38,561 nucleotides of DNA from a virus (Duplodnaviria > Heunggongvirae > Uroviricota > Caudoviricetes): the IMG/VR virus record IMGVR_UViG_2703718787_000016; one strand, 5' to 3'. Of this stretch, positions 14,493-38,561 are shown one piece after another. The translations under genes and the position numbers were made by a program. Position 1 is the stretch's first letter; every line of letters begins with the position of its first letter. Below the pieces are notes generated by a model that was given only the letters and a program-made list of their open reading frames with translations, had not been told where the DNA came from and searched no databases.

Positions 14493-16241
14493 TCAGAACT
14501 CCATTGCAAAGCCGCGATTATCCTCACGCTCCGCACCAATTGGCTCATTGATAACAGCAAGCATGGTTGCCCAGGCGAGGTCACCATGGCTGACGCCACG
14601 GGAGCGGTCGGTGTCGTAGGTGATATAGCCGCCGGGTGTCTGTATTTTTCGCACCGATGCGAATGCCTGGATCAGGTCACGTTCACTGCGGTCATACTCC
14701 CAGCGTCCGGCACGCACCACCTGAAGCATTTTCATGACCAGTGCCCGCTTGGAGGCGATATTGAAGTTGTACGGTACGGCCATCGGGAAAAACTTTTTCA
14801 CAATCTGATAAACCCCCTCCCCGTTCCCGCCGGTCACATCAATGCCGATATGTTTCACGTTATATTTTTGGGTGTATTCCTCAATCAGTGCGGCCTGCTG
14901 TTCAAACTCCATCCCCTGAACCCTGACAGTTTCCACCGTGCGAAAACGCCCACCGGCAACAAGGGGCGGCACGCACACCGACAGTGCCCCGCAGTCCCCC
15001 TTCCCGCTGCTGCCGTTGGCGTCATACCCAAGCCAGACCTCCCTCACCCCCATAGGGCGGGCAGCAAAAGGTTTCCAGTCAGGCCATTCGTCATAGCCGT
15101 CAACACCGCAGCCGGTGAGCGCACTCAGGCTGAAGGCTGCCTCACCATCACGGACAAATTCGCACATGTACAGATTACGAAATTCACTTTCTGTATTTTC
15201 GCTGCGAATAACACCAATATTGGTGTACCGCCATCCGTTAGCGACAGCATCCTCAATAGTGACAATCTGCCGCCATGTTTCGTCAGGAAAGAGCACGCCC
15301 CCCTTCAGATGCGCATGTGAAACATCAAACTCACTGCGTTTTGAGCGTGGCTGTTCGCTGTTCCAGCGGTCCCCCGTCCAGAACTGATACGCCTCATGTG
15401 TTTCACCTGACGGTGTTGAAAAGTAGGTTCGCGTAAGCCCTTCCAGTGTCGCCATTGCCCCAGCAACCTTCCTGAGTTCCACAAAGTTACTGACCCAAAA
15501 AAATTCATCAAATTTAAGGTGTCCGGTATACGACTGAGCGGTTGCTGCCGATGTGCCAAGGAAGTGAAGCTCTGCACCGTTAGACAAAACAATCTTGTCA
15601 CCCCCTTTCAGTTCGACATCAACTTCCAGCGCCGCCTGCTGAATAAAGTGTTTGAACTGATACGCCTGGCGACGGGATGCGGACAAAAATATCTGGTTGC
15701 GCTGGTACCCGGCGGAGACATCATCACGCAGTGCATCAAGGAGTGCTTCGCGCGCAAAATACCAGGTCGCACCAATCTGACGCGACTTCAGGATCATGCG
15801 GTTGCGGTGATGGCGGTTGTCGTACCATTCGCGCTGATGCCAGGCCAGTGACGGCAGGATTTTTTCCCTGAGTGCGACAATCTGCTCTTCGGTGAAGTGA
15901 TTTTTCAGTTTGCGCCTGCGGGGCTTCTTACCGGAAACAGCCTGTTCTCCCTGACCGTCATTCAGTTTTTTCAGCTGGCGCGTCAGCAGGTCAATTTCCT
16001 TAAAGTCACCGCCGCTTTTATCCGGTTTGGCGGTGAGCTGTATCAGGCGTGCATCAATGGACTGGGTGACCCGCTGGATCGGGGGAGTGGCATCCCACTC
16101 ATCGCGTTTTTTCCACGAATAAATCGTGTTCTGGTTTATTCCCATCAGCTGAGCGATATCCGCCGGGGTATACCCCTGCCAGTAAAGCTGTTTCGCCCGC
16201 ATACGAATAAAGACATCCTGGATCATTGCACCCCCTGACAT
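14493..16241 (-). CDS. P: Terminase large (ATPase) subunit, P2 gpP-like
   Basis: Large ORF divergent from the scaffold gene, in the P2 Q-P arrangement. Start taken as ATG 16241; an alternative ATG at 16226 has a better GGGGGTG Shine-Dalgarno motif. Confidence 0.92.
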   Translation of the reverse strand: MSGGAMIQDVFIRMRAKQLYWQGYTPADIAQLMGINQNTIYSWKKRDEWDATPPIQRVTQSIDARLIQLTAKPDKSGGDFKEIDLLTRQLKKLNDGQGEQAVSGKKPRRRKLKNHFTEEQIVALREKILPSLAWHQREWYDNRHHRNRMILKSRQIGATWYFAREALLDALRDDVSAGYQRNQIFLSASRRQAYQFKHFIQQAALEVDVELKGGDKIVLSNGAELHFLGTSAATAQSYTGHLKFDEFFWVSNFVELRKVAGAMATLEGLTRTYFSTPSGETHEAYQFWTGDRWNSEQPRSKRSEFDVSHAHLKGGVLFPDETWRQIVTIEDAVANGWRYTNIGVIRSENTESEFRNLYMCEFVRDGEAAFSLSALTGCGVDGYDEWPDWKPFAARPMGVREVWLGYDANGSSGKGDCGALSVCVPPLVAGGRFRTVETVRVQGMEFEQQAALIEEYTQKYNVKHIGIDVTGGNGEGVYQIVKKFFPMAVPYNFNIASKRALVMKMLQVVRAGRWEYDRSERDLIQAFASVRKIQTPGGYITYDTDRSRGVSHGDLAWATMLAVINEPIGAEREDNRGFAMEF

Positions 16242-16291
16242 TAACAGGGCAAGATTAAGCCTCAGCAATACCGCCTGATACCAGCCCGCGT

Positions 16292-16309
16292 TGTCCCCGT
16301 CGCCATACA
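16292..16309. promoter_or_regulatory. TGT-N12-ACA element in the divergent P/O late promoter region (candidate Ogr binding site)
   Basis: TGTccccgtcgccatACA sits between the divergent P and O starts, matching the dyad consensus of P2-family late promoters. Confidence 0.5.
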
Positions 16310-16381
16310 ACTTAAGCACCTTGAGACACACCGTTATCTGCCGCCATCATGGGAAAAACGACCAGGTTATGGAGAATTTCC

Positions 16382-26639: not shown

Positions 26640-27255
26640 CCGACTGCTGCCGCCATCATCGCCCTCCTTCCTGCATCATTCGGAACAGGGCGCTCAGCGC
26701 CTGTCAGAGCTGCCGATCCATATCAACACCCTCTGGAACCCCGACACCTGCCCAGCCCATCTGCTGCCATGGCTTGCCTGGGCGCTTTCCGTTGACCGCT
26801 GGGATGAAACATGGAGTGAAGAGGCACGTCGTCAGATCATCCGTGACTCGTGGCATATTCACCGCCACAAAGGCACCATCAGCGCCATGCGTCGGGCTGT
26901 GGAGCCCTTCGGCGCGATACTGAGTATTACAGAATGGTGGGAGAACAACGATCCGCCGGGGTCATTCAGGCTGGATATTGACATATCGGAGCGCGGACTG
27001 ACAGAGGAAACCCGGCAGGAGATGGAGCGAATGATTACCACCGTTCGCCCGGTAAGCCGACACCTTGCCGCCATGAAAATGACCTACGTTGCACGGGGTG
27101 TATCCCGCATAACCGGGGCCACGCTGACCGGGGAAACCATCGTGGTATATCCGGCAGCAGAACTGACAAGCCCGCTGTCAGTCAGTGGTGACATCCACCC
27201 GGGCGGAGTCACCTATGAAGGCATCACAGTAACCATCAGACCGGACAAGGAGTAA
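26632..27255 (+). CDS. I: Baseplate protein, P2 gpI-like
   Basis: ATG at 26632 overlapping the J stop; between J and the tail fiber gene. Confidence 0.85.
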   Translation: MNNRLLPPSSPSFLHHSEQGAQRLSELPIHINTLWNPDTCPAHLLPWLAWALSVDRWDETWSEEARRQIIRDSWHIHRHKGTISAMRRAVEPFGAILSITEWWENNDPPGSFRLDIDISERGLTEETRQEMERMITTVRPVSRHLAAMKMTYVARGVSRITGATLTGETIVVYPAAELTSPLSVSGDIHPGGVTYEGITVTIRPDKE

Positions 27256-28595
27256 TGATGGCCGCAAAATACAAAACCATTATCACAAATGCCGGCACAG
27301 CAGCCCTCGCAGCTGCGGTGTTACCGGATGGAGAAAAGATCACGCTGACACATATCGCCGTCGGAGACGGTAACGGTAAACCCACAGAACCACTGGCCAC
27401 GCAAACCGCTCTCGTTAAAGAGGTCTGGCGGGGCGAGGTCAGCAGGGTCAGCCGTGACGCGGAAAACACCAGTTTTTTAACCGCCGAAGTGATCATTCCT
27501 GCGAATGAAGGAGGATTCTGGATCCGCGAAATCGGTCTGTTTGACAGCAAAGGCACACTCATCGCCGTGGGTAATGTTGCGGAAGGTTACAAACCGCAGC
27601 TTGATGAGGGCTCAGGCAGAGAACAGGTATTCCGCATGGTGATTCTGCTGAGCAACGAAGCCTCTGTAAATCTGACAGCCGACTCATCAACCACCATGGC
27701 AACACAGGCTGGCGTGGCAGAAATGATAAAGCAGCATGAACAAAACGGTAAACACCCGGATGCCACAACCACCAGTAAAGGATTTACTCAGCTCAGTAGT
27801 GAAACCGACAGTGATGATGAAACCCGGGCAGCCACACCCAAAGCAATAAAAGCACTTAAGGCGCTGACAGTAACAAGACCAACAGCCCCCCTCGCCGTGG
27901 ATCTGAATACACTGGGGAGACCTGAACATCATGGTGACTACTATCAGCCCAACAACAACGGCGCCACTACAGCACATCACTACCCGGTAACATCAGCCGG
28001 ATCATTATCCATCAGGATGGGCGCATGGGGATTCTGCCAGCAGGAATACACCGCCTGGAATCCACCACGAAAATTTATCCGGACAGTGACAGGTAACTTC
28101 ACCGGCAACGGGCCATGGTCTGAATGGAAGGAGGTTGCCATACTCCCCCTCACGCAGACCGGCGACGCCTCCCTGACAGAGCGAGGTATTGTTCAGCTAA
28201 GCAGCGCAACGGACAGTGACAGTGAAGTGCTGGCTGCCACACCAAAAGCTGTGAAGACGGCCATGACGGCAGCAGAAAACGCCGGGCAGAAAGCACGGCA
28301 AGCACTGGAGGCTGCACAGGCAAAAACACAGCGGACACTCTGGGATGTGGGCAGCTTTATTCTGGCGGCAACGGATGCCGAAGGGGAGTGGCCAGCCAAA
28401 ATTGATATAACGGCCGGAAACACCCGCCCGGGCAGTAAACTCAGACTGATAAGCCTGACTCATTCCGAAGGCAACTTCGGCCCCCGTGAATCCATGCAAA
28501 ACTGGAACACAAACCGCAGGCCACCGGGCACGTGGCGGGCCTGCGCTGACATTTATGCAGGCGCAGGAATCGGAATATTTGAGCGCATTGCCTGA
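27255..28595 (+). CDS. H: Tail fiber protein, P2 gpH-like (conserved N-terminus, divergent C-terminus)
   Basis: 446 aa with a conserved N-terminal region (MMAAKYKTIITNAGTAALAAA..., IREIGLFD) and an internal repeat (FTQLSSETDSDDETRAATPKAIKA / VQLSSATDSDSEVLAATPKAVKTA). Confidence 0.85.
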   Translation: MMAAKYKTIITNAGTAALAAAVLPDGEKITLTHIAVGDGNGKPTEPLATQTALVKEVWRGEVSRVSRDAENTSFLTAEVIIPANEGGFWIREIGLFDSKGTLIAVGNVAEGYKPQLDEGSGREQVFRMVILLSNEASVNLTADSSTTMATQAGVAEMIKQHEQNGKHPDATTTSKGFTQLSSETDSDDETRAATPKAIKALKALTVTRPTAPLAVDLNTLGRPEHHGDYYQPNNNGATTAHHYPVTSAGSLSIRMGAWGFCQQEYTAWNPPRKFIRTVTGNFTGNGPWSEWKEVAILPLTQTGDASLTERGIVQLSSATDSDSEVLAATPKAVKTAMTAAENAGQKARQALEAAQAKTQRTLWDVGSFILAATDAEGEWPAKIDITAGNTRPGSKLRLISLTHSEGNFGPRESMQNWNTNRRPPGTWRACADIYAGAGIGIFERIA

Positions 28596-28606
28596 CGGAG
28601 AGACTC

Positions 28607-29194
28607 ATGCACACAATCAAATCAGCAAGAAATGCCGCTTATAACCGTGACGGCACTATCGACTGTGAGATCCAGTTTGAAGGGGAGGAGAGCTGGCTGC
28701 CCTATACGGCAACCGAATATGACAACTCGCCACACGGCAAAAAACTCTGGGGCGAACTGAAAGCAGGAAATCACGGCCCTGTATCTGAATACCAGGAAAA
28801 CGACACTGACAGGGAAAACGCCAGACGCCTGAAAAACGACGAAATCAACGCCTGGCGTAATGCGATGGAAGCGGCGAGTTACACCTTTGAACATAACGGC
28901 AGGAAATGGGACTACGGGAAGTCAACGCAGGCCCGCCTTGAGCCTTCCGTTGCTGCCGCAAAAGCGGGGATCCTGCCGCTGGATTTTTTCTGGACTGATG
29001 CACAGAACAACGATGTTCCTGTTTCTGCTGATGAGCTGATTGCCCTCAGCGATGCAGCCGCAAAAGCCCTGTTTGCCAAAGGGATGGAAATTCACATTCG
29101 CCAGCGTAACATGAAAAAAGAGATCGCCGCCCTGAACGATACGGCGGCGATTCTGGACTATAAGGTTGGCTGGGGAAAAGAAGCCGAAGCCTGA
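28607..29194 (+). CDS. Putative tail fiber assembly chaperone (gpG position)
   Basis: Immediately downstream of the tail fiber gene on the same strand; the sequence does not obviously match P2 gpG, so the call rests on position. Confidence 0.5.
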   Translation: MHTIKSARNAAYNRDGTIDCEIQFEGEESWLPYTATEYDNSPHGKKLWGELKAGNHGPVSEYQENDTDRENARRLKNDEINAWRNAMEAASYTFEHNGRKWDYGKSTQARLEPSVAAAKAGILPLDFFWTDAQNNDVPVSADELIALSDAAAKALFAKGMEIHIRQRNMKKEIAALNDTAAILDYKVGWGKEAEA

Positions 29195-29204
29195 ACAGTG
29201 ACCT

Positions 29205-29696
29205 TCACAACATGAGACCAGACAGCGCAGAGGACGCCGACGACAGGGCCGACGACGCGCTGTTTTTTAATCCTGCCATCAGATCACCCACCGAGCCCGA
29301 CTGAAGACGCTCACGCAGATCTTCATTGCATCGCTGAAAGCTGACAGTGAACTCAATTTTGCGGGCCATGCCATAGCGATCCAGCTCCTGACGGGTGGTC
29401 CTGATTTCCGTAATGACATACATCCCGTAAATCTGTCCGACACCATCAATCAGTGGCCAGGGTAATCCTGTGTAGGCCAGGGTGTTCAGGGCAGTCAGTG
29501 ACACCTCCCCGCCGGTGATTTCCGGACAGAGCACACCGGACATCGTGATGTGATCTTCACCAGAGCCAATATACTGCCAGGAGGATGAACGGTTAACCCG
29601 TTCATTACTGACGTGTCGCCAGCGTTTACTCTGTTCCACCTGCTGATGCGGCAGGGTACTTAACTGAAACACAAACATCCCATAAATCATCATCAT
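29205..29696 (-). CDS. U: Tail protein, P2 gpU-like
   Basis: N-terminus MMMIYGMFVFQLSTLPHQQVEQSKRWRHVSNERVN...LCPEITGG...LPWPLIDG closely parallels P2 gpU; start taken at the MMM ATG (29696). Confidence 0.88.
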   Translation of the reverse strand: MMMIYGMFVFQLSTLPHQQVEQSKRWRHVSNERVNRSSSWQYIGSGEDHITMSGVLCPEITGGEVSLTALNTLAYTGLPWPLIDGVGQIYGMYVITEIRTTRQELDRYGMARKIEFTVSFQRCNEDLRERLQSGSVGDLMAGLKNSASSALSSASSALSGLML

Positions 29697-29706
29697 CTTT
29701 TTCACC

Positions 29707-32499
29707 TCAGTCGCGATCGCGGAAGCTGCCGGTTCCGGCACGTGCCATTCTGTTCATTTCCGCCCTGACAGCGTCACCAACCATGCGCGCCAGTTCCCGG
29801 GGATTATGCGAACTCACCCCGTGAAGATGCACATGTATCTCCCCCTGAAAGGCGCTGGCGAAGGTTTCCTGCTGGTGCATTCGTGGCGCCGGGCGTGCCG
29901 TCGGCCATTGCTGCACCTGAATCTCCTCCTGTGGCAGCGCGCGCATTCCGCCGGAAGACGGCGCAACGACAGGTTCATGCCACTGCCCCCGGACCGCCAG
30001 CGCCCGTGGAAGATGTTTAAACACAATATCTCCGGGTCCGATACGTTTACGGTTTTCAGCCAGCAGACCACCGGTATTCCCCTCAATGCCTTTCAGGTGA
30101 CGGAGAACGTTACGGTTACCGTCCGGCGCTATCCCCGCAGGGAGCGCCACCGGCGGAGGCTGTGTACCGGAGGCGCCGGAAGGCACACTGGCCCCACCAG
30201 GAGGCGACCAGTGCCACGCCTTCTGAACCATTTTTTTCTGTTCCGGATCCCACTCCCATGCCACCGGCGTTTTACGGGCCTCATCCAGTTTTCGCTTAAC
30301 CCGCTCAGCTTCACCGGGCAGAACACCGAGTTTTTCCAGCACCCACGCCAGACCGTCAATCAGAGCTTTCAGGGGCGAAAAAACCGTGGCTAACGCACCG
30401 GCCAGAGTGCTCCCGAACGTCTGCCCGGCAGAGGTGCACTGCTCAAGCAAATCACGCGTGGAGGAGACTGGCGTTAACAGGGATTTAAACCATCCCAGAA
30501 TACGGGACAGTGCCCCTGAAACCAGATCCAGCAGCGGCGCAAAACGGGAGGCTGTCGCCATGAAGGGCGCCAGTGCTGACTGTACCCCTTCAATAAATCC
30601 GCTCACAAACGCCCTGACCCGATCCCAGTAGCGCCAGATCAGCAGAGCACCACCGACCAGGGCTCCCACCGCCACCACAACCGGCCAGGTCAGCGCCCCC
30701 AGCGCAGCCCCCACGGCTGAAATCACACCCGTCAGTCCGCCAAACAGCGTACCGGCAACAGAGAGTCCGGCCGGGATCGCGCGAAGCAGGGCAAGCCCCA
30801 GACGCAGTTTCAGTAACGGTGCGACAACCATCCAGGCCGCAACGGACAACGCCCCCATCGCTGTGGTTAACGCCAGCACCGCTCCCGTCGTCAGCGCAAT
30901 CATTCGCACCAGTTCCGGATGCGCATTCACCCACGCCTGCAGACGCTCACCCCACGCTGTGGCCATCCGGACAAGCCCACGCAGATCGTCCGTAATCTCC
31001 CCGATAATCCCACTTCTCAGCGCGCTGAACGTCCCGGTAAGCCGCGCCACATCACCACTCAGATTGTCACGCAGGGTTTGCCCCATCCGGTCCGCCACAC
31101 CAGACACGTCAGCCATACGGTCAGACACCCGCGCCAGCGCGCCAAGAAAGGCAGGGATTTGATCGACAGACAGATCTTCAACCGGTGTACCAAAAAGTGC
31201 GATGGCCGCATTGGCCCGCTCAGCCGGATCGACGATCTGCAACAGACCCGAGGCTGTTTTCTGCAGCGCAGCCCGTGCAGCCGTTCCACCACTGGCTACA
31301 GCCGATGACATCCTGGCTGCATCCAGCCCGATAAGCGCATACGCTTCAGCACTCGCCTTTGACATATCGGAGCCGCGAATACTGAACTCCTTGATGGCAT
31401 CGCCGGTTTTATCCAGCGCAAACTTCCCCTGCTGCGCCATATCCGCAAGGAGCGTCATGGTTTCCGACCCTGTCAGCCCCATGTTACGAAAATGGGTCGA
31501 ATACTCGTGAAGGATCTCAGGCAGCTCATCGCGCATAACCGGCCCCATGCGCTGCATGCCCGCCACCATCAGATCAACCGCCTCGTCACTGCTGCGTGCA
31601 AGACCGTTTTTGATCATGATGGCAGCCGCCTGAATGTGCTGCGGGATATCGCCCCCCATCACGGCCTGCATATCCAGCATTTTTCGGGTGATTCGGGTCA
31701 GTTCATTCTCACTAACCGCCCCCAGCCCACCCAGAGTGGAGCGGACAGCACCCACAGCTTCAGCCGCCAGTTGTGCATCCGGTGTGATACCGGTATGAAC
31801 CATGTGGTTTATAACCCCGGTATACCCCACGGCATCTGACGCGCCCTCTCCTGCCTGAGCCGCAATGACGGCACCATGACGCTGGAGATCCATCACCGGC
31901 GCAACAGCACGCCCGCCAGCGTAAAGTCCTGCTGCACCGGCAGCCAGTGCCGCCGCACCGGCATTACGTATCCGCCCGAGTCGCTCCTGCGCCTGTTCAT
32001 AGCGTTGCTGTGCACGGGTCACCTGTGCGAGCGCCTGCCGCTGTCGCGCCAGCTCTTCGTTATACTCTGCCGTCCGGCGAATGGCTGCCTGTATGGTCTG
32101 ACTGCTGCCCTCTGCGGCAATACCGTGTCTCTCCAGCTCCCGGCGTGAATCCTCCAGGCGTCGCTGATGTACATCCCTCACCCGGTTCAGACGTTCAAGC
32201 CGGGTGGTCAGCGAAGCCATCATTTCACGCTGCCGTTCACTGAGCACGGTACCCTCACGCTCCGCCTGCTGCAGACGGTTCAGTTGCTGCTGAACAGCGG
32301 CAATTTTCCGGGTGGCTTCGTCAAATTTAGTCTGTGCCGCAGCAAAGGCTTCACTCTGCCGTTCAAGCGAGCGGATGGAGTCCTGAGTTTCACGGAGGGA
32401 ATCAGAAAGCGCGCCCACGGTTTCGCGGGCGCGCCTGAGAGGTTGTGTCAGGGTGTCTGCCGCCGCCAGAGCAACCCTGATATGCAGATTATTCATCAT
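29707..32499 (-). CDS. T: Tail tape measure protein, P2 gpT-like
   Basis: About 930 aa, coiled-coil N-terminal region, central Gly/Ala-rich hydrophobic repeats, located between E and U. Start at the ATG ATG pair at 32499..32494; the listed ORF begins at an upstream GTG. Confidence 0.9.
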   Translation of the reverse strand: MMNNLHIRVALAAADTLTQPLRRARETVGALSDSLRETQDSIRSLERQSEAFAAAQTKFDEATRKIAAVQQQLNRLQQAEREGTVLSERQREMMASLTTRLERLNRVRDVHQRRLEDSRRELERHGIAAEGSSQTIQAAIRRTAEYNEELARQRQALAQVTRAQQRYEQAQERLGRIRNAGAAALAAGAAGLYAGGRAVAPVMDLQRHGAVIAAQAGEGASDAVGYTGVINHMVHTGITPDAQLAAEAVGAVRSTLGGLGAVSENELTRITRKMLDMQAVMGGDIPQHIQAAAIMIKNGLARSSDEAVDLMVAGMQRMGPVMRDELPEILHEYSTHFRNMGLTGSETMTLLADMAQQGKFALDKTGDAIKEFSIRGSDMSKASAEAYALIGLDAARMSSAVASGGTAARAALQKTASGLLQIVDPAERANAAIALFGTPVEDLSVDQIPAFLGALARVSDRMADVSGVADRMGQTLRDNLSGDVARLTGTFSALRSGIIGEITDDLRGLVRMATAWGERLQAWVNAHPELVRMIALTTGAVLALTTAMGALSVAAWMVVAPLLKLRLGLALLRAIPAGLSVAGTLFGGLTGVISAVGAALGALTWPVVVAVGALVGGALLIWRYWDRVRAFVSGFIEGVQSALAPFMATASRFAPLLDLVSGALSRILGWFKSLLTPVSSTRDLLEQCTSAGQTFGSTLAGALATVFSPLKALIDGLAWVLEKLGVLPGEAERVKRKLDEARKTPVAWEWDPEQKKMVQKAWHWSPPGGASVPSGASGTQPPPVALPAGIAPDGNRNVLRHLKGIEGNTGGLLAENRKRIGPGDIVFKHLPRALAVRGQWHEPVVAPSSGGMRALPQEEIQVQQWPTARPAPRMHQQETFASAFQGEIHVHLHGVSSHNPRELARMVGDAVRAEMNRMARAGTGSFRDRD

Positions 32500-33036
32500 G
32501 ATTGTGACTTCCGCTTCTGGCAGCCGCCCGCTCACGCCAGGCGACCACCTCTGCAGGCGTCATTGCAAATATCTCTGCGGGCGGCCAGTTAAAAATAACA
32601 GCAATATCCGCAACGGGATCTTCAATACAGTCAAAGCAAAGACAGGTTACGGCTCTGCCGTGTTCTCCGGTGCCGGTGCATTCGACCCCGAGGGTGCGAA
32701 AAAATTAACCGCCGCCGAGCTCAGCGCCGTAAAATCCGCCGTATTCATGGCATACATTTCGGCCTCCTTAAGTTTTGGCTCTGTCACACGCGCAAGCCAG
32801 GTGACCATGGCATCACAGTTCATGTTGTAAAGCGCAAGCAAAGACAGCCCACGCAGCGATCCGGCCTGATTCGCCAGCGGTCCGATTTTAATTTCACTGT
32901 ACGACACATCTCCGCGCACAACAGGCACCGTCAGCTTCACCACGTTCTTAGGTGCAGCCGTAGCGGCAACCGCCACCGCGGAAGCCTCCCCGTTACTGAC
33001 GGCAGTGTCAGTGGTCATTTCCGTTTCTTTATCCAT
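32489..33036 (-). CDS. Predicted E+E' programmed -1 frameshift product
   Basis: A -1 slip at the heptamer (minus-strand TTTTTTC, plus coordinates 32698..32704) opens a 68-codon extension (FFRTLGVEC...AEVVAWRERAAARSGSHNHDE) that stops at 32491..32489, overlapping the T start codons. This is the P2 E/E' architecture. Confidence 0.5.
32647..33036 (-). CDS. E: Tail assembly chaperone, P2 gpE-like
   Basis: 129 aa between the tube gene and the tape measure gene; ends just downstream of a T-TTT-TTC slippery heptamer. Confidence 0.8.
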   Translation of the reverse strand: MDKETEMTTDTAVSNGEASAVAVAATAAPKNVVKLTVPVVRGDVSYSEIKIGPLANQAGSLRGLSLLALYNMNCDAMVTWLARVTEPKLKEAEMYAMNTADFTALSSAAVNFFAPSGSNAPAPENTAEP

Positions 33037-33083
33037 TTTCAGTCTCCACGGCTGGATCCCCGCCGTTCTCTGTTAAACAATAA

Positions 33084-33593
33084 TCAGAAGCCCAGCATCG
33101 AGCGGGTGCGATCCGGCAGCACATCCTTACCGTCAATGCGCCAGATAAAATTCAGCACATCAAATTCGATTTTTTCCCGATCATCCACGCTCAGTCTGTA
33201 CCAGGTGTTTTTCATCGAATAACTGTGCTCAGTGTCTTCACCCTGCTTCGCCTCCCCCATATCGATTTCAGTGATGCGCCCGCGGACCTCAATATCCACA
33301 TATCTGATATCCGCATCCGAATAGTACTCACCGGAAAAGCGAAGACGGACTTCATCAAGTGACCCGGCATAACGGGAGAAAAGGTGGGCATCTGCGCCGC
33401 CTACCGCAAAAGAGAGATCCAGTGCACCATCATCAAGACCAAAGTCGACGGAAACACTGCCGGGCATCCCGGCACCACGGAAGGACTCCGTTTTTCGGGT
33501 CAGTTTAGGCGGCGTGAAGGACGTCACCCGCCCCAGCTTGTTTTCGCCATCGATGTACACCGTGAAAACGCGAAGTTTGTTTGGTACCGCCAT
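33084..33593 (-). CDS. FII: Tail tube protein, P2 gpFII-like
   Basis: 169 aa immediately downstream of the sheath gene on the same strand, size close to P2 FII. Confidence 0.9.
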   Translation of the reverse strand: MAVPNKLRVFTVYIDGENKLGRVTSFTPPKLTRKTESFRGAGMPGSVSVDFGLDDGALDLSFAVGGADAHLFSRYAGSLDEVRLRFSGEYYSDADIRYVDIEVRGRITEIDMGEAKQGEDTEHSYSMKNTWYRLSVDDREKIEFDVLNFIWRIDGKDVLPDRTRSMLGF

Positions 33594-34780
33594 TACTCAC
33601 CTCCCAGTGATGCAAATGCACCGTCAAAGAACTCATCAGTAAACGTCTGGTGAAGCTCCAGATCTTCAAGCGGTGGTACCGGCGTATATCTGTAGCGGAT
33701 CCGCACAATCCCCTGACGCAGATCCGTTGTGCCGTTATCCACCACGTCATACCAGCACTCTGCCCCGATAAGTTTACCCGCTGTCACAAGGGCACTCAGT
33801 TTTGCCCGGATATCGCTTAACACATCCTTCACGTTCGACGGCGTCAGCGGCTTGTCCACGGTTTCAAACTGCGATTCGGCGATGGTATCCGCCAGCGACT
33901 GCGCCGTACGCGTGTAGGTCTCAAAGGTGTAGGTAGTGGTGTCGAGAGTCCGGTTACCCCAGAAACGGAAGCCGTTACGTTTAATGAGTGTGGTGATCTC
34001 CTTGTCATTGAGGGTTTCCGCGTCACTGTCCTCTGCCTGGAGCGACCAGAACACCGGCACAGAAATACCCAGGACATTATTCACTGCCACATTGGACAGG
34101 GATTTATGCCAGCCCTGCTCGTGGTCAATCTTCGCACGCAACCCGCACGCATACGCAGATGCAGGAAAAGCCTCATTCTGGCCACTGTTAGGGTTGTACG
34201 CGATAAAATCAGGCCAGATCAGCATAACTTCACGGTGAGCAAGATCGGCGCGCCAGGTGACAGCCTCCTGCACGGTATTACAGCCGGGACAGCCCGCATA
34301 CACAAAGGCACGCAGCTTTTTCGCGACGGTTACCAGTGCCGCCACCACCTCTTTGGTGTCAAGCGATGGCACAGCCAGGATCCTGGGACGAACACCAACA
34401 GCCTCATTCTGTTCAGCCACCAGGAGCGCCTGCATGCCTGTATAGGTTCCGTCATTTTTGACCTCACCAATAACAAGCTGCGTTTGTGTCGGCTGACCAT
34501 CCCCCTCCTTCGCAGCAGCAACCCGCACCACAACAACTCTGGTGCTGACCTGATCGGCAATAGCTTTCAGACTTTTGTACAGCGTGCCGGTTTTCCCGGC
34601 CTTACCCAGCACATCCATAACGCGCGTCAGGAGCACCGGCTTATCCAGCGGAAATGTTTTTGCATCAGCATCATCAGCAACAGCCACGATACCAATCACA
34701 CTGGAGTCAATATCATTAATGGCCGTGACCAGATCCGCATTCTCCCGGACCCGCACGCCATGGAAACGGGTTTCAGCCAT
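33593..34780 (-). CDS. FI: Tail sheath protein, P2 gpFI-like
   Basis: Strong similarity to P2 FI (DADAKTFPLDKPVL, KLRAFVYAG, LMLIWPDF, LRAKIDHEQGWHKSLSNV, TLIKRNGFRFWGNRT, YRYTPVPPLEDL). Start at ATG 34780 with an AGGGTG Shine-Dalgarno motif. Confidence 0.92.
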   Translation of the reverse strand: MAETRFHGVRVRENADLVTAINDIDSSVIGIVAVADDADAKTFPLDKPVLLTRVMDVLGKAGKTGTLYKSLKAIADQVSTRVVVVRVAAAKEGDGQPTQTQLVIGEVKNDGTYTGMQALLVAEQNEAVGVRPRILAVPSLDTKEVVAALVTVAKKLRAFVYAGCPGCNTVQEAVTWRADLAHREVMLIWPDFIAYNPNSGQNEAFPASAYACGLRAKIDHEQGWHKSLSNVAVNNVLGISVPVFWSLQAEDSDAETLNDKEITTLIKRNGFRFWGNRTLDTTTYTFETYTRTAQSLADTIAESQFETVDKPLTPSNVKDVLSDIRAKLSALVTAGKLIGAECWYDVVDNGTTDLRQGIVRIRYRYTPVPPLEDLELHQTFTDEFFDGAFASLGGE

Positions 34781-34934
34781 ATTATTCACCCTGCATTCGT
34801 GTGAGTTCAGCAGAGATCTTTACGAACACGGGGAGCTTTTTCACGAACTGCGGTTTCTCGCAATACACATACAACCCAAACTCATTCCGGTGGTGTTTCT
34901 GGTATGCAACTGTGGCGGGAAAAACGGAGGAATT

Positions 34935-36059
34935 ATGGTATTGCTGAACGGTAACACGGTTTATTCCCCCCTGAAAGAACTGGTGAAAATGCCTGATTTC
35001 AGCGTTTCACTGGACAGGGAGCAGGATAAAAACACACTTCAGGAACTGAATAACCGGGTGATATCGCTTTCCATGACAGACAACCGGGGGTTTGAAGCAG
35101 ACAGGGTCACTCTTGTGCTGGATGATGCCGACGGGCAGCTGGCTCTCCCCGGGCGGGGAACACACATCAGAGTCATGCTGGGATGGAAGGGAGAACCTCT
35201 GGTTGATAAAGGCACCTACATTGTTGATGAGGTCGCTCATGAAGGACCTCCGGAGCGGCTGACACTGAGTGCAAACAGCGCAGACTTCAGGGAGGAATTT
35301 AACGTCAAACGGGAAGTATCCTGGCACGACGTGACTGTTGAACGCGTGGTTTCCGCTATTGCCCACCGTTACGGACTGAAAGCCCAGATAAGCGATATGC
35401 TTATGGATATTGAAATCGATCATGCCGACCAGACGGAAGAAAGCGACATATCATTCCTTACCCGCATGGCTGATATGCTGGGAGCCATCACTACCGTCAA
35501 AAATGGCTGTCTGCTGTTCATTCTGCCGGGTGGCGGCGTGACAGCTGACGGGCGCCCACTCCCCTCATTTGCACTGGCACGCAGTGACGGAGACAGTCAC
35601 CAGTTCAGAATAGCCGATCGCCAGGCATACACAGGGGTGAAGGCGTACTGGCTGGATTTGAATCATGGCAAAAAGAAAGCCGTCAACATAAAAAAACGAA
35701 AAACTCACGCTGAAAAGAGCAGCAGCCGGGAAGGCAGCTACATGGAGGGGGCAGAAGGTAACGTGTTCGTTCTGAGAAAAACCTACCCAAATGAAATTGC
35801 TGCACAGCGCGCAGCTGCCGCCAGGTGGCAGCAATTACAGCGCGGTGCGGCTGAATTCTCCATCACGCTGGCCCGGGGCAGAGCGGAGCTTTACCCTGAA
35901 ATGCATGGCACGGTAACCGGCTTTAAAACCGAAATAGACAATCAGGACTGGCTCATTGCAAAAGTGGAACACAATATCGACGGAAGCGGCTTCACCACAA
36001 GGCTTGAACTGGAGGCAAGAATACCCGAGTGGATAGCCGAAAAGGAAAGCAATGGTTAG
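34935..36059 (+). CDS. D: Tail protein / late gene D, P2 gpD-like
   Basis: 374 aa from the ATG at 34935 (GGAGG Shine-Dalgarno motif), located immediately before ogr as in P2. Confidence 0.88.
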   Translation: MVLLNGNTVYSPLKELVKMPDFSVSLDREQDKNTLQELNNRVISLSMTDNRGFEADRVTLVLDDADGQLALPGRGTHIRVMLGWKGEPLVDKGTYIVDEVAHEGPPERLTLSANSADFREEFNVKREVSWHDVTVERVVSAIAHRYGLKAQISDMLMDIEIDHADQTEESDISFLTRMADMLGAITTVKNGCLLFILPGGGVTADGRPLPSFALARSDGDSHQFRIADRQAYTGVKAYWLDLNHGKKKAVNIKKRKTHAEKSSSREGSYMEGAEGNVFVLRKTYPNEIAAQRAAAARWQQLQRGAAEFSITLARGRAELYPEMHGTVTGFKTEIDNQDWLIAKVEHNIDGSGFTTRLELEARIPEWIAEKESNG

Positions 36060-36103
36060 AATGGCGACGAGTTCAACCCCAGTTCAGCCAGGGGGGTATA
36101 TCA

Positions 36104-36406
36104 ATGTTTCATTGTCCATTCTGCGGCGCATCTGCCCGGATCCGTACCAGTAAAGCCGCCAATGATACCGGCACCATCCGCTACAAATACTATCAGTGCA
36201 ATAACCTTGAGTGCAGCGCCACATTTTCAACAATGGAAAGTGTGCACAGAATTATTGGCCAGCCTCAGTTGATCTTCCACGATAAAGATATTCCACGGGA
36301 GACAATGCGCAAATCCCATCAGGGACGCAGTCAGTTAACGCTACAACTGGAGGATTGCGGTATGGCTTTAAAACCAGTACATTACGCGCGGGTGCCTTTC
36401 GGCTGA
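36104..36406 (+). CDS. ogr: Late transcription activator, Ogr/Delta zinc-finger family, with a C-terminal extension
   Basis: MFHCPFCGASARIRTS...YYQCNNLECSATFSTMESVHR matches the P2 Ogr Cys4 zinc-finger core; the ORF continues about 30 codons beyond the usual Ogr length into the first hok-locus repeat. Confidence 0.85.
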   Translation: MFHCPFCGASARIRTSKAANDTGTIRYKYYQCNNLECSATFSTMESVHRIIGQPQLIFHDKDIPRETMRKSHQGRSQLTLQLEDCGMALKPVHYARVPFG

Positions 36407-36540
36407 CGGCTGGAAGGAAAACCTGAAGGCCGGATGTGGAAAGGCCCCGAGTCAAACATATTGTTTAACCCGAGGCCCTAACCATTCCTACCCTAGACAA
36501 GTGGAAGGTTAGCGCCTCCCTGTAAAAGGAGTCAAGCGCT

Positions 36541-36681
36541 ATGCCGCAAAAAACGATCATCGTGAGCATTTTATGCTTAACCATGTTGTTGGCCATCTGG
36601 ATGATACACCGTTCGCCGTGTGAGTTCAGACTTAACATCATGTGGTCAGAATTTGCGGCGTTCTTGCAGTGTAAACAGTAA
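36541..36681 (+). CDS. hok: Hok/Gef-family type I toxin (46 aa), copy 1
   Basis: Translation MPQKTIIVSILCLTMLLAIWMIHRSPCEFRLNIMWSEFAAFLQCKQ. Shares the Hok family signature with HokA as I recall it (N-terminal MPQK, transmembrane segment, R-x-S-x-C-E, E-x-AAFL-x-CK). AAGGAG Shine-Dalgarno motif 10 nt upstream. Below the ORF-track size cutoff. Confidence 0.6.
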   Translation: MPQKTIIVSILCLTMLLAIWMIHRSPCEFRLNIMWSEFAAFLQCKQ

Positions 36682-36772
36682 GAAACCGCAGCGGGGGTGA
36701 AAGCCCCCGCTATCCGGTTGTCGGGTTCAGTCGATATGGCACCCCTTTCTCCATTGGATTACAGACGTATTT

Positions 36773-36796
36773 GCCCGCAATATGCGGGCTTTTTTG
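36773..36796 (+). terminator. Rho-independent terminator downstream of hok-like copy 1
   Basis: GCCCGCA-ata-TGCGGGC stem-loop followed by TTTTTT. Confidence 0.5.
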
Positions 36797-37012
36797 CCGC
36801 CCTCCCCCTAAACAGTTTCAACACTGAGCATTGCGCGCACAAAGGGAAATCAGTAGATTACACGTGGGTGCCTTTCGGCTGACGGCTGGAAGGATTACCT
36901 GAAGGCCGGATGTGAAAAGGCCCCGAGTCAAACATTTGTTTAACCCGAGGCCCTAACCATCTAACCTTCGCAAGTGGAAGGTTAGCGCCTCTTTGAAAAA
37001 GGAGCAAGCGCT

Positions 37013-37153
37013 ATGCCGCAAAAAACGATCATCGTGAGCATTTTATGCTTAACCATGTTGTTGACAGTCTGGATGATACACCGTTCGCCGTGTGAGTTCA
37101 GACTTAACATCATGTGGTCAGAATTTGCGGCGTTCTTGCAGTGTAAACCGTAA
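37013..37153 (+). CDS. hok: Hok/Gef-family type I toxin (46 aa), copy 2
   Basis: Translation MPQKTIIVSILCLTMLLTVWMIHRSPCEFRLNIMWSEFAAFLQCKP, differing from copy 1 at three residues; same Shine-Dalgarno context. Confidence 0.6.
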   Translation: MPQKTIIVSILCLTMLLTVWMIHRSPCEFRLNIMWSEFAAFLQCKP

Positions 37154-37246
37154 GAAACCGCAGCGGGGGTGAAAGCCCCCGCTATCCGGTTGCCAAAGGT
37201 TCGGTCGAAAGTAGCACCCTCACACGCAAGTCACAAAGAAAAACAA

Positions 37247-37278
37247 AGCCCGTAGCGTAAAAACTGCGGGCTTTTTTG
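37247..37278 (+). terminator. Rho-independent terminator downstream of hok-like copy 2 (possibly bidirectional with the convergent host gene)
   Basis: AGCCCG...CGGGCT stem followed by TTTTTT. Confidence 0.45.
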
Positions 37279-37286
37279 TTTCAAAG

Positions 37287-37305
37287 ATGGACATTATATG
37301 GACAC
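37287..37305. promoter_or_regulatory. Candidate integrase arm-type binding sites (P arm): two direct ATGGACA repeats
   Basis: ATGGACAttatATGGACAc, 17/19 identical to 589..607 at the other prophage end. Confidence 0.4.
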
Positions 37306-37320
37306 CTGAAAATAAATCCC

Positions 37321-37331
37321 TTTTATTTTCA
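37321..37331. other. Candidate attR core (ttttattttca)
   Basis: Near-identical to 527..537; contains the stop codon of the host ORF 37329..38561 on the minus strand. Confidence 0.3.
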
Positions 37332-38561
37332 GTTAATTAATCTCATGCAAAAACCGCCCGCAGGCGCTTTGCTTTCGTGCGCACCAATATTTTGCGTAAA
37401 CAGTTTCCCTGGCAATTGCGCTTGTTCGGCAGTGCCATCAAACTGACCGACAAACAGCGGGGTTTGCAATTTTGAGTCTTCATACCAGCACAGCCCCGCG
37501 GCACCGTCTAACGCCCCAGTCAGCTTGTCGTTTTCCTGGCTGATGTGCGAAAGCATCTCTTCGGCAATACCGTGTGAATACGGCACCGCCACACAGAAGC
37601 TGGCCCCGGCAGGCATACTGTTCCAGACCGGCGTAAAATCGAAACTGGCATCCACACTCGCGGATTCATCATTTAACGCCAGAAAGCTATGCCAGCCGTC
37701 GTTGCTCATTTCGAAACGCACTCCGGCAAAAGAAGGCATTAATCGCTGGTAGCCAAAACCCAGCAACCTGGCGCTGACCACGATGCGCTGGCGTACTGGT
37801 GTTTTTCCGGCAGTACGCTCTTCCAGACCGAAGCTGGCTTGCCAGCGTTTTTTGCCGCTCAACAAATCACCTGCGATCGCCGTGGCTTCGGTATCCTGCT
37901 GATCATCTTTAAACAACATATCCGTGCTGGAAAACACCAGCATCTTGTCCTGATAAGTCGCGAACATCAGGGCGTTATTGCCGTTATAGCGCAACTGATA
38001 AACAGGAATAGTTTCACTATTTATCTTGATGCTACTGATTTCCGTTTTGCTTAACTGGCTGTCGCTGGTAGCGGCAAACAACAATGGCTCCAGCAGTTTG
38101 CTTAAACCACTGCGCTGGATCAGCACCATATAATGTGAAAGATGGCCTTGTTTATCGTGCCACAGCGCTGCCTGCGCGGGCTGATCTAAGAGTGACGAAA
38201 AGAGCTTATCTTTCAGCGTGAGATCGTGTTCATAGACAATACGACGAATGCTGCCTTCAATGCCCAGACGATCGGCATGATTCTGATAATAGAAAACGAA
38301 ATCTTCGCTCAGAACATCGTGGAGAAACGGAATGGTGAGGAGATCTTTGGGAAGCTGGCTCAGAGAGTCGCTGTCGAGAAAGAGGTCCGGCTCATTGAGA
38401 TCGATTTGCAGATTGTTGTGCACCACCAGCGGCGACAACGTTTTTTCTGGCCCACTGCCAGCATATTGCAACGCCCAGACGCCAGCGGAAAGCAGTGCTA
38501 TTGCGCCAAAACCTACAAGACCATAGAACCGCCAGCCTTTCGCCTTTTTTTCACCACTCAT
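37329..38561 (-). CDS. Host gene: membrane-anchored protein of unrecognised family (410 aa), start at or beyond the window edge
   Basis: N-terminal signal-anchor-like segment (WRFYGLVGFGAIALLSAGVWAL), then a large soluble region; stop lies within the candidate att core, so the prophage sits at its 3' end. Confidence 0.7.
   Translation of the reverse strand: MSGEKKAKGWRFYGLVGFGAIALLSAGVWALQYAGSGPEKTLSPLVVHNNLQIDLNEPDLFLDSDSLSQLPKDLLTIPFLHDVLSEDFVFYYQNHADRLGIEGSIRRIVYEHDLTLKDKLFSSLLDQPAQAALWHDKQGHLSHYMVLIQRSGLSKLLEPLLFAATSDSQLSKTEISSIKINSETIPVYQLRYNGNNALMFATYQDKMLVFSSTDMLFKDDQQDTEATAIAGDLLSGKKRWQASFGLEERTAGKTPVRQRIVVSARLLGFGYQRLMPSFAGVRFEMSNDGWHSFLALNDESASVDASFDFTPVWNSMPAGASFCVAVPYSHGIAEEMLSHISQENDKLTGALDGAAGLCWYEDSKLQTPLFVGQFDGTAEQAQLPGKLFTQNIGAHESKAPAGGFCMRLIN

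Follow-up and report, generated by a model that had tools for sequence, protein, structure and literature searches.

IMG/VR record IMGVR_UViG_2703718787_000016 is a DNA stretch of 38,561 nucleotides from a tailed virus (Caudoviricetes), in the following designated the window in its full length. It contains the late gene module of a P2-like phage (Peduoviridae), as homologues of V, W, J, I, H, G, FI, FII, E, T, U, D, and Ogr were all found with PHROG and Pfam profiles. The present analysis deals with the gene block FI-FII-E/E′-T-U, which is located in the region 29195-34934 (Table 1). According to the open reading frame (ORF) map and the profile matches, V, W, J, I, H, and G are encoded on the plus strand, U, T, E/E′, FII, and FI on the minus strand, and D and ogr on the plus strand. 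A sequence-only reading of the window had described this strand distribution, with G and U convergent and 10 bp between their stop codons and with FI and D divergent across about 155 bp (154 bp by exact count), and had interpreted it as an inversion with respect to phage P2. The description agrees with the profile matches and with the annotation provided by the Prokaryotic Genome Annotation Pipeline (PGAP), and the structural interpretation stands, whereas the significance implied for the inversion does not. In our assessment, to which we assign a rough probability of 85%, the element is an ordinary Peduoviridae prophage of a multi-genus, monophyletic branch in whose ancestor the block was inverted once and fixed, with D presumably transcribed from a dyad shared with the promoter of FI.

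Both junctions can be read directly from the sequence. The TGA stop codon of G ends at 29194 and the reverse-complemented stop codon of U begins at 29205, and at the other end the ATG of FI is located at 34780 (minus strand) and that of D at 34935, the latter preceded by GGAGG. The -1 reading frame of E/E′ is open from the slippery sequence to a TAA directly after the start of T, so that the signal for the programmed -1 frameshift upstream of T, a feature of P2-like phages, is present in the sequence. The part from 32489 to 32626 is annotated by PGAP as "GpE family phage tail protein" in a 100% identical stretch of Escherichia coli. In E. coli NZ_CP075697.1, which carries a 100% identical copy of the 8.5-kb stretch, the strands and start codons assigned by PGAP match those of the window.

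Table 1 Features of the late region of the window and of the sites used for comparison
Feature	Position	Strand	Evidence and remarks
G-position tail fibre assembly gene (DUF4376)	28607..29194	+	phrog_1141, E=1e-76; PGAP: DUF4376 protein; last gene of V-W-J-I-H-G
Convergent G/U junction, 10 bp (ACAGTGACCT)	29195..29204		Read from the sequence; left inversion endpoint with respect to P2
U (tail protein)	29205..29696	-	phrog_76, E=3e-66; start according to PGAP; open frame reaches 29741
T (tape measure protein)	29707..32499	-	phrog_28, E=2e-105; start according to PGAP; open frame to 32535
E′ extension via -1 frameshift	32489..32706	-	Slippery T_TTT_TTC at ~32706-32700; ends just past the start of T
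E (tail assembly chaperone)	32647..33036	-	phrog_103, E=1e-28
FII (tail tube)	33084..33593	-	phrog_55, E=2e-55; PGAP: major tail tube protein
FI (tail sheath)	33593..34780	-	phrog_23, E=9e-119; 49% identity to P2 FI, 76% to P88_4B11 FI
Divergent FI-D spacer, 154 bp	34781..34934		Right inversion endpoint; proposed bidirectional late promoter region
D (late control D/baseplate hub protein)	34935..36059	+	phrog_52, E=7e-150; PF05954; 47% identity to P2 gpD
ogr (Ogr/Delta zinc-finger late activator), 100 aa	36104..36406	+	PF04606, E=7e-16; PGAP concurs
Ogr-type dyad TCT-N12-ACA (TCTCGCAATACACATACA)	34856..34873		Centre 34864.5; 84.5 nt to FI ATG, 70.5 nt to D ATG
Candidate -10 AAAGAT, FI-FII-E-T-U operon	34816..34821	-	Offset 44; predicted start near 34809
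Candidate -10 AACTGT, D(-ogr)	34908..34913	+	Offset 44; predicted start near 34920
Internal comparator, P/O divergent spacer, 155 bp	16227..16381		Central TGT-N12-ACA 16292-16309; -10-like hexamers at offsets 44 and 45
Candidate terminator of V-G transcript	29220..29270	+	Hairpin, then T-run; antisense in the 3′ end of U; -20.1 kcal/mol, z=-1.6 (weak)
Candidate terminator of FI-U transcript	29110..29154	-	Stem GAUCGCCGCC/GGCGGCGAUC, then UCUUUUUU; antisense in the 3′ end of G

In P2 (Peduovirus; NC_001895), FI-FII-E-E′-T-U-D form one operon in V-to-G direction, in agreement with the sequence-only reading, with Z/fun located between G and FI, and D overlaps the stop codon of U and has no promoter of its own. 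This operon structure, with a FI-FII-E-T-U-D unit co-directional with V to G, is not found in the window. Compared with P2, a segment of about 5.6-5.7 kb reaching from FI to U is inverted, and its endpoints correspond, as proposed, to the G|FI cargo site (Z/fun in P2) and to the U|D boundary. Nevertheless, P2 and Fels-2 (Felsduovirus) have much in common with the window: their genes are the same, they have the E/E′ frameshift and the Ogr activator, a pF-type dyad precedes FI by about 82 nt, and their pP/pO spacer is bidirectional. Fels-2, initially suspected to possess the inverted layout, turned out to be co-linear.

The distribution of the inverted block among relatives was analysed in three data sets. 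In a phage collection, in which the layout was scored by cross-tabulating the tblastn positions of FI and D, the two genes are adjacent and divergent in all 45 records whose FI shares at least 58% identity with that of the window, among them P88, 500465-2, Chuche, Shae_phiSM, Klebsiella ST16-OXA48phi5.4, 3LV2017, the Kp48xx series, Serratia KSP20, 520873, and SEN4/5. From IMG/VR, 80 loci with an FI of 75-100% identity were retrieved, and each of them has U, T, E, FII, and FI in this order on the minus strand, followed by D and ogr on the plus strand, which also carries V to H. In a scan of GTDB with one genome per species, the block is inverted in 22/22 loci with an FI identity of at least 60%, which belong to Salmonella, Citrobacter, Edwardsiella, Enterobacter, Kosakonia, Symbiopectobacterium, Erwinia, Pantoea, Trabulsiella, Izhakiella, Mixta, Klebsiella, and Pectobacterium. 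The order G(+), U-T-E-FII-FI(-), D-ogr(+) is common to 105 loci, and the window fits this pattern. The scorable loci with an FI identity of at most 53%, many of them from Burkholderia, are co-linear as in P2. In neighbour-joining trees of FI, of D, and of FI plus D, the inverted set is monophyletic and includes the window. The two classes are parted alike by genes of the block (FI, FII, U) and by flanking genes (D, J, V), and the identity ranges of D, at least 60% in inverted and at most 49% in co-linear loci, are without overlap. Deviations were observed in two loci: in the 69.9-kb IMG/VR contig L069, T and U are located about 6 kb away in the other orientation, and in L097 of Trabulsiella odontotermitis, I and H lie behind U in the same orientation; either could represent a second element or a secondary inversion.

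Among the described phages, Escherichia P88 and P88_4B11 (Xuanwuvirus), PhiR44_2, and Citrobacter Shae_phiSM have a gene order and strand distribution identical to those of the window, and the P88-type phages contain an FI-D spacer of 157 bp with one TCT-N12-ACA dyad; they differ in that FI and D share only 75-76% and 76-79% amino acid identity, respectively, with the window. Salmonella SEN4/SEN5 (Senquatrovirus) and Enterobacter phiT5282H (Novemvirus) also have the inverted block with divergent FI and D, and SEN5 has a perfect TGT-N12-ACA in this spacer; FI identity is lower (58% and 73%), and the G/U junctions are 203 and 154 bp long. The P88/SEN4/phiT5282H-type branch, to which many prophages of Enterobacterales also belong, is thus characterized by an inverted FI-U block that is already contained in reference annotations (P88_4B11, PhiR44_2, SEN5, phiT5282H) and is not a new rearrangement, and the prophage of the window is a somewhat divergent member of this known branch with a gene arrangement ordinary for its lineage. 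The sequence-only reading had treated the orientation as a departure from P2 and had itself stated that reference genomes of the P2 family with this orientation as the lineage norm would speak against it; it did prove to be the norm, since all relatives examined with an FI identity of at least 58% are inverted. In the text of the papers on P88 (PMC5285337), SEN4/5 (PMC5261728), and Burkholderia P2-like phages (PMC3091744) and of a 2026 survey of P2-like phages (PMC13100340), the inversion is not discussed. The prophage type itself is fairly rare, because FI identity reaches at most 76% in the closest described phages and 79% in the closest non-identical IMG/VR relatives and because it was found in only 12/5,426 complete E. 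coli genomes.

The assumption of an assembly artefact, or of a recent inversion private to this prophage or strain, can practically be dismissed. The whole 8.5-kb stretch including both junctions occurs in the 12 complete E. coli genomes, mostly as one aligned piece, an identical IMG/VR contig also carries both junctions, and the same layout recurs in relatives from many genera, without exception down to an FI identity of 58%. Misassembly is excluded, because 12 complete genomes span both junctions and more than 100 independent loci show the arrangement. In E. coli NZ_CP053234.1, NZ_CP132728.1, and NZ_CP116067.1, the near-identical copies span 8,961 bp instead of 8,501 bp and align in two pieces, and these copies therefore contain an insertion of about 460 bp somewhere within the part corresponding to 28000-36500.

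A reversed DNA segment adjoining tail fibre genes resembles the invertible segments of the Gin/Cin/Pin/Hin type, and this resemblance extends to the relatives. The G/U junction varies in them from 10 bp to more than 3 kb and represents the variable cargo site of the clade, in contrast to the FI-D junction, which is kept at 146-158 bp in 86 unique relatives. In 35 of 95 loci, the gene of a Gin/Cin-type invertase is located at the G/U junction, immediately next to U. In the window, however, a homologue of the invertase was not detected by tblastn with the P88_4B11 protein, and inverted repeats pairing 29195-29204 with 34781-34934, as would be required for crossover sites, are absent; in agreement with the sequence-only reading, only chance-level pairs were found, none of which joins the two junctions. 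Both orientations were not seen among close relatives, as the 105 inverted-clade loci and the 12 near-identical E. coli genomes all have one orientation, and the clade contains no co-linear member. In P88_4B11, moreover, the invertase adjoins an alternative tail fibre cassette, which is its usual substrate and which occupies, together with the invertase gene, the G/U junction that measures 10 bp in the window. Taken together, the lack of an invertase and of junction repeats and the single orientation in relatives indicate that the block is not a switch, as had been supposed before, and an actively invertible FI-U segment flipped by a site-specific invertase for phase variation is very unlikely. 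In 30 of the 35 invertase-bearing loci (including L001, 15634-16233), the invertase gene lies within 50 bp of the stop codon of U, i.e., at the left inversion endpoint, a position that may be relevant to how the inversion arose. That such a tail fibre invertase catalysed the original inversion at a pseudo-site is conceivable, though doubtful.

The simplest reading of the distribution described above is that of one ancient inversion that became established in the ancestor of a Peduoviridae sub-branch comprising several genera, for which the co-linear order of the Burkholderia phages, P2, and Fels-2 would be ancestral. On this reading, the block FI-FII-E/E′-T-U was inverted a single time in the common ancestor of the branch, one break falling at the U|D boundary and the other a short distance upstream of the activator site of pF. 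As an alternative, the ancestor could have replaced its sheath-to-U module by that of another phage, inserted in the opposite orientation, which would be in line with the exchange of tail modules among P2-like phages and with other rearrangements documented for them, e.g., in Smp131 (PMC3931495). A replaced module, however, is difficult to reconcile with the parallel divergence of block and flanking genes, which define the same clade, and with a distance between dyad and FI equal to that of the ancestral pF, as expected if the promoter moved together with the block; we regard this alternative as improbable.

A consequence of the inversion is that D no longer belongs to the F operon and that its transcription has to start in the FI-D spacer. 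The requirement for a promoter in this spacer had been postulated in the sequence-only reading and is supported by a conserved dyad and by candidate -10 hexamers. The consensus of Ogr-dependent P2 late promoters, which control four late operons in P2, is TGT-N12-ACA (PMC3931495). In an alignment of the spacers of 27 diverse members of the clade, the half-sites T(G/C)T and ACAAC are conserved, the 12 nt between them are variable, and the ATG and ribosome-binding site of D align across the clade. Exactly one T[GC]T-N12-ACA is present in 85 out of the 86 unique spacers and invariably occupies the homologous position; its centre is 78.5-88.5 nt from the ATG of FI and 68.5-76.5 nt from that of D. 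In the window, the extended motif TTST-N12-ACAA is present only in the FI-D and P/O spacers. The perfect consensus TGT-N12-ACA occurs nine times in the window, compared with about nine expected from a rough base-frequency estimate. The number of sites by itself thus tells nothing, and weight can be given only to where a site lies and whether it is conserved. A first candidate for the Ogr site at 34888-34910 (minus strand), chosen for its similarity to P2 pF, was dropped, since the stretch is not conserved in relatives.

Hexamers of the type nAnnnT were scored in 85 spacers at each offset from the dyad centre. At an offset of exactly 44 nt, 100% of the spacers have such a hexamer beginning on the FI face and 91% have one on the D face; elsewhere the share does not exceed 11%, except for offsets of 47 and 58 nt on the FI face (about 70%). 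In the whole window, hexamers on both faces occur only at the P/O and FI/D dyads. At the experimentally mapped P2 promoters pO, pP, and pF, the hexamer is likewise offset by 44-45 nt. The distance from the pF activator site to the ATG of FI is 82.5 nt in P2 (annotated) and 81.5 nt in Fels-2, and the FI side of the spacer has thus kept the geometry of the ancestral pF. With respect to its architecture, the FI-D spacer resembles the P2 pP/pO pair, in which a single dyad occupies the centre of a divergent spacer (about 155-173 bp) and has a -10-like hexamer at a distance of 44 nt on either face. According to the record annotation, pP and pO share one site and have mapped starts 55.5 nt to either side of it; the window has the same organization, a single central dyad between divergent late genes with hexamers about 44 nt off on both faces. 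P/O spacers of the P88 type contain the TCT variant of the dyad. The difference between the two systems is that the P2 starts were mapped experimentally, whereas the FI/D starts are predicted from the sequence.

On this basis, the FI-U operon probably keeps the ancestral Ogr-dependent pF, and D, which begins about 70 bp beyond the symmetric Ogr-binding dyad of this promoter and is followed by ogr, would be transcribed from the second face of the dyad, so that the 154-bp spacer would act as a bidirectional late promoter like P2 pP/pO. With slightly less confidence, we consider it somewhat better than an even chance that the arrangement represents a promoter capture by inversion, in which the break just upstream of the Ogr site of pF placed D on the hitherto unused face of the dyad and a one-way late promoter became a two-way promoter. 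If true, the capture would duplicate the pP/pO architecture, and ogr may come under direct positive feedback through co-transcription with D. At the other end of the block, the 10 bp between G and U leave no room for intergenic terminators, and a consensus scan for promoters and terminators gave nothing at this junction. Transcription of the convergent V-G and FI-U operons probably ends at hairpins that each lie within the last gene of the other operon (Table 1). For the hairpin at 29110-29154, a 95-nt stretch folds at -28.4 kcal/mol (z=-2.3), and 4 of 200 shuffled sequences were as stable.

Several points weigh against the picture developed here. An inversion in situ is formally indistinguishable from a reacquisition of the block in reverse orientation. 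The left half-site of the dyad is TCT rather than TGT in most of the clade including the window, and the percentages given for the hexamers overstate the number of independent observations, as 59 of the 85 spacers are closely related and of the P88 type. Both terminator hairpins are weak (z=-1.6 and -2.3), and the starts of transcription, the binding of Ogr, and the Ogr dependence of the D promoter are all deduced from motifs in the DNA. The predicted leader of D is only about 15 nt long, and a GC-rich block (CGCGCGCGTG) between dyad and D is conserved in most relatives but absent from the window. The imperfect dyad, the short leader, and the GC-rich block could also be taken to mean that the inversion is ancient and clade-wide as described, that D has a separate promoter, either independent of Ogr or using another site, and that the dyad serves FI only. 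The location of ogr downstream of D fits with such a promoter, too: its product is needed before the late genes are expressed, which suggests some Ogr-independent transcription entering D-ogr or starting inside D. On the other hand, a consensus scan revealed no sigma-70-like promoter in the FI-D spacer, the distance from dyad to D is held within narrow limits, and the offset of the D-face hexamer, present in nearly all spacers, is that of the mapped P2 late promoters. A separate D promoter therefore appears the less likely solution, although it is a serious competitor, and transcription of D from the second face of the dyad is preferred.

With respect to discovery, the layout carries little weight, as it is standard for a described P2-like branch. 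It does illustrate that gene order and operon structure in the Peduoviridae at large cannot safely be deduced from P2, and annotators should not flag the inverted FI-U arrangement as a rearrangement or a misassembly. A modest biological interest lies in the question of how D retains late, Ogr-dependent expression once cut from the operon, for which a conserved single dyad with promoter-like elements on both faces offers a simple and directly testable model. As far as we could find, the shared-dyad promoter has not been described; it would be a modest extension of the known pP/pO principle.

Some further features of the window concern the neighbouring genes. The Ogr homologue comprises 100 aa compared with 72 aa in P2 and 86 aa in P88_4B11 and possesses a C-terminal extension. 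The tail fibre ORF H (27255-28595, plus strand) is intact but short in the window (446 aa), and in the corresponding region of NZ_CP075697.1 PGAP annotates three partial tail fibre pseudogene fragments; the H fibre may be truncated or mosaic. Within 23721-25394, the genes R, S, and V directly adjoin or overlap one another, which leaves no intergenic gap at the position of the P2 promoter pV. The sole perfect TGT-N12-ACA near V (24279) is located inside S about 520 bp upstream of V and was treated as a chance occurrence. In the inverted clade, transcription may reach the baseplate and fibre genes by read-through from upstream.

Between the lysis genes and R, an ORF of 688 aa (21319-23385, plus strand) contains DUF1737, a SASA domain (sialate O-acetylesterase type), and DUF6645, and its domain order resembles that of the NanS-p esterases of Shiga toxin (Stx) prophages; it looks like a cargo gene within the late operon. 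The region downstream of ogr (about 36400-37300) shares about 85% identity with Stx2-converting phages, in whose annotation it appears as "MokW-like host killing", and in the identical E. coli region PGAP predicts two Hok/Gef genes at about 36541-36681 and 37013-37153. The ORF at the right end of the window (37329-38561, minus strand) encodes a DUF2138 protein (E=1e-197). In E. coli STEC2018-607, which is 100% identical to the window over 28000-36500, the right flank is formed by serS-rarA, and the window therefore probably comes from a different strain, or else the same type of prophage is integrated elsewhere in the chromosome.

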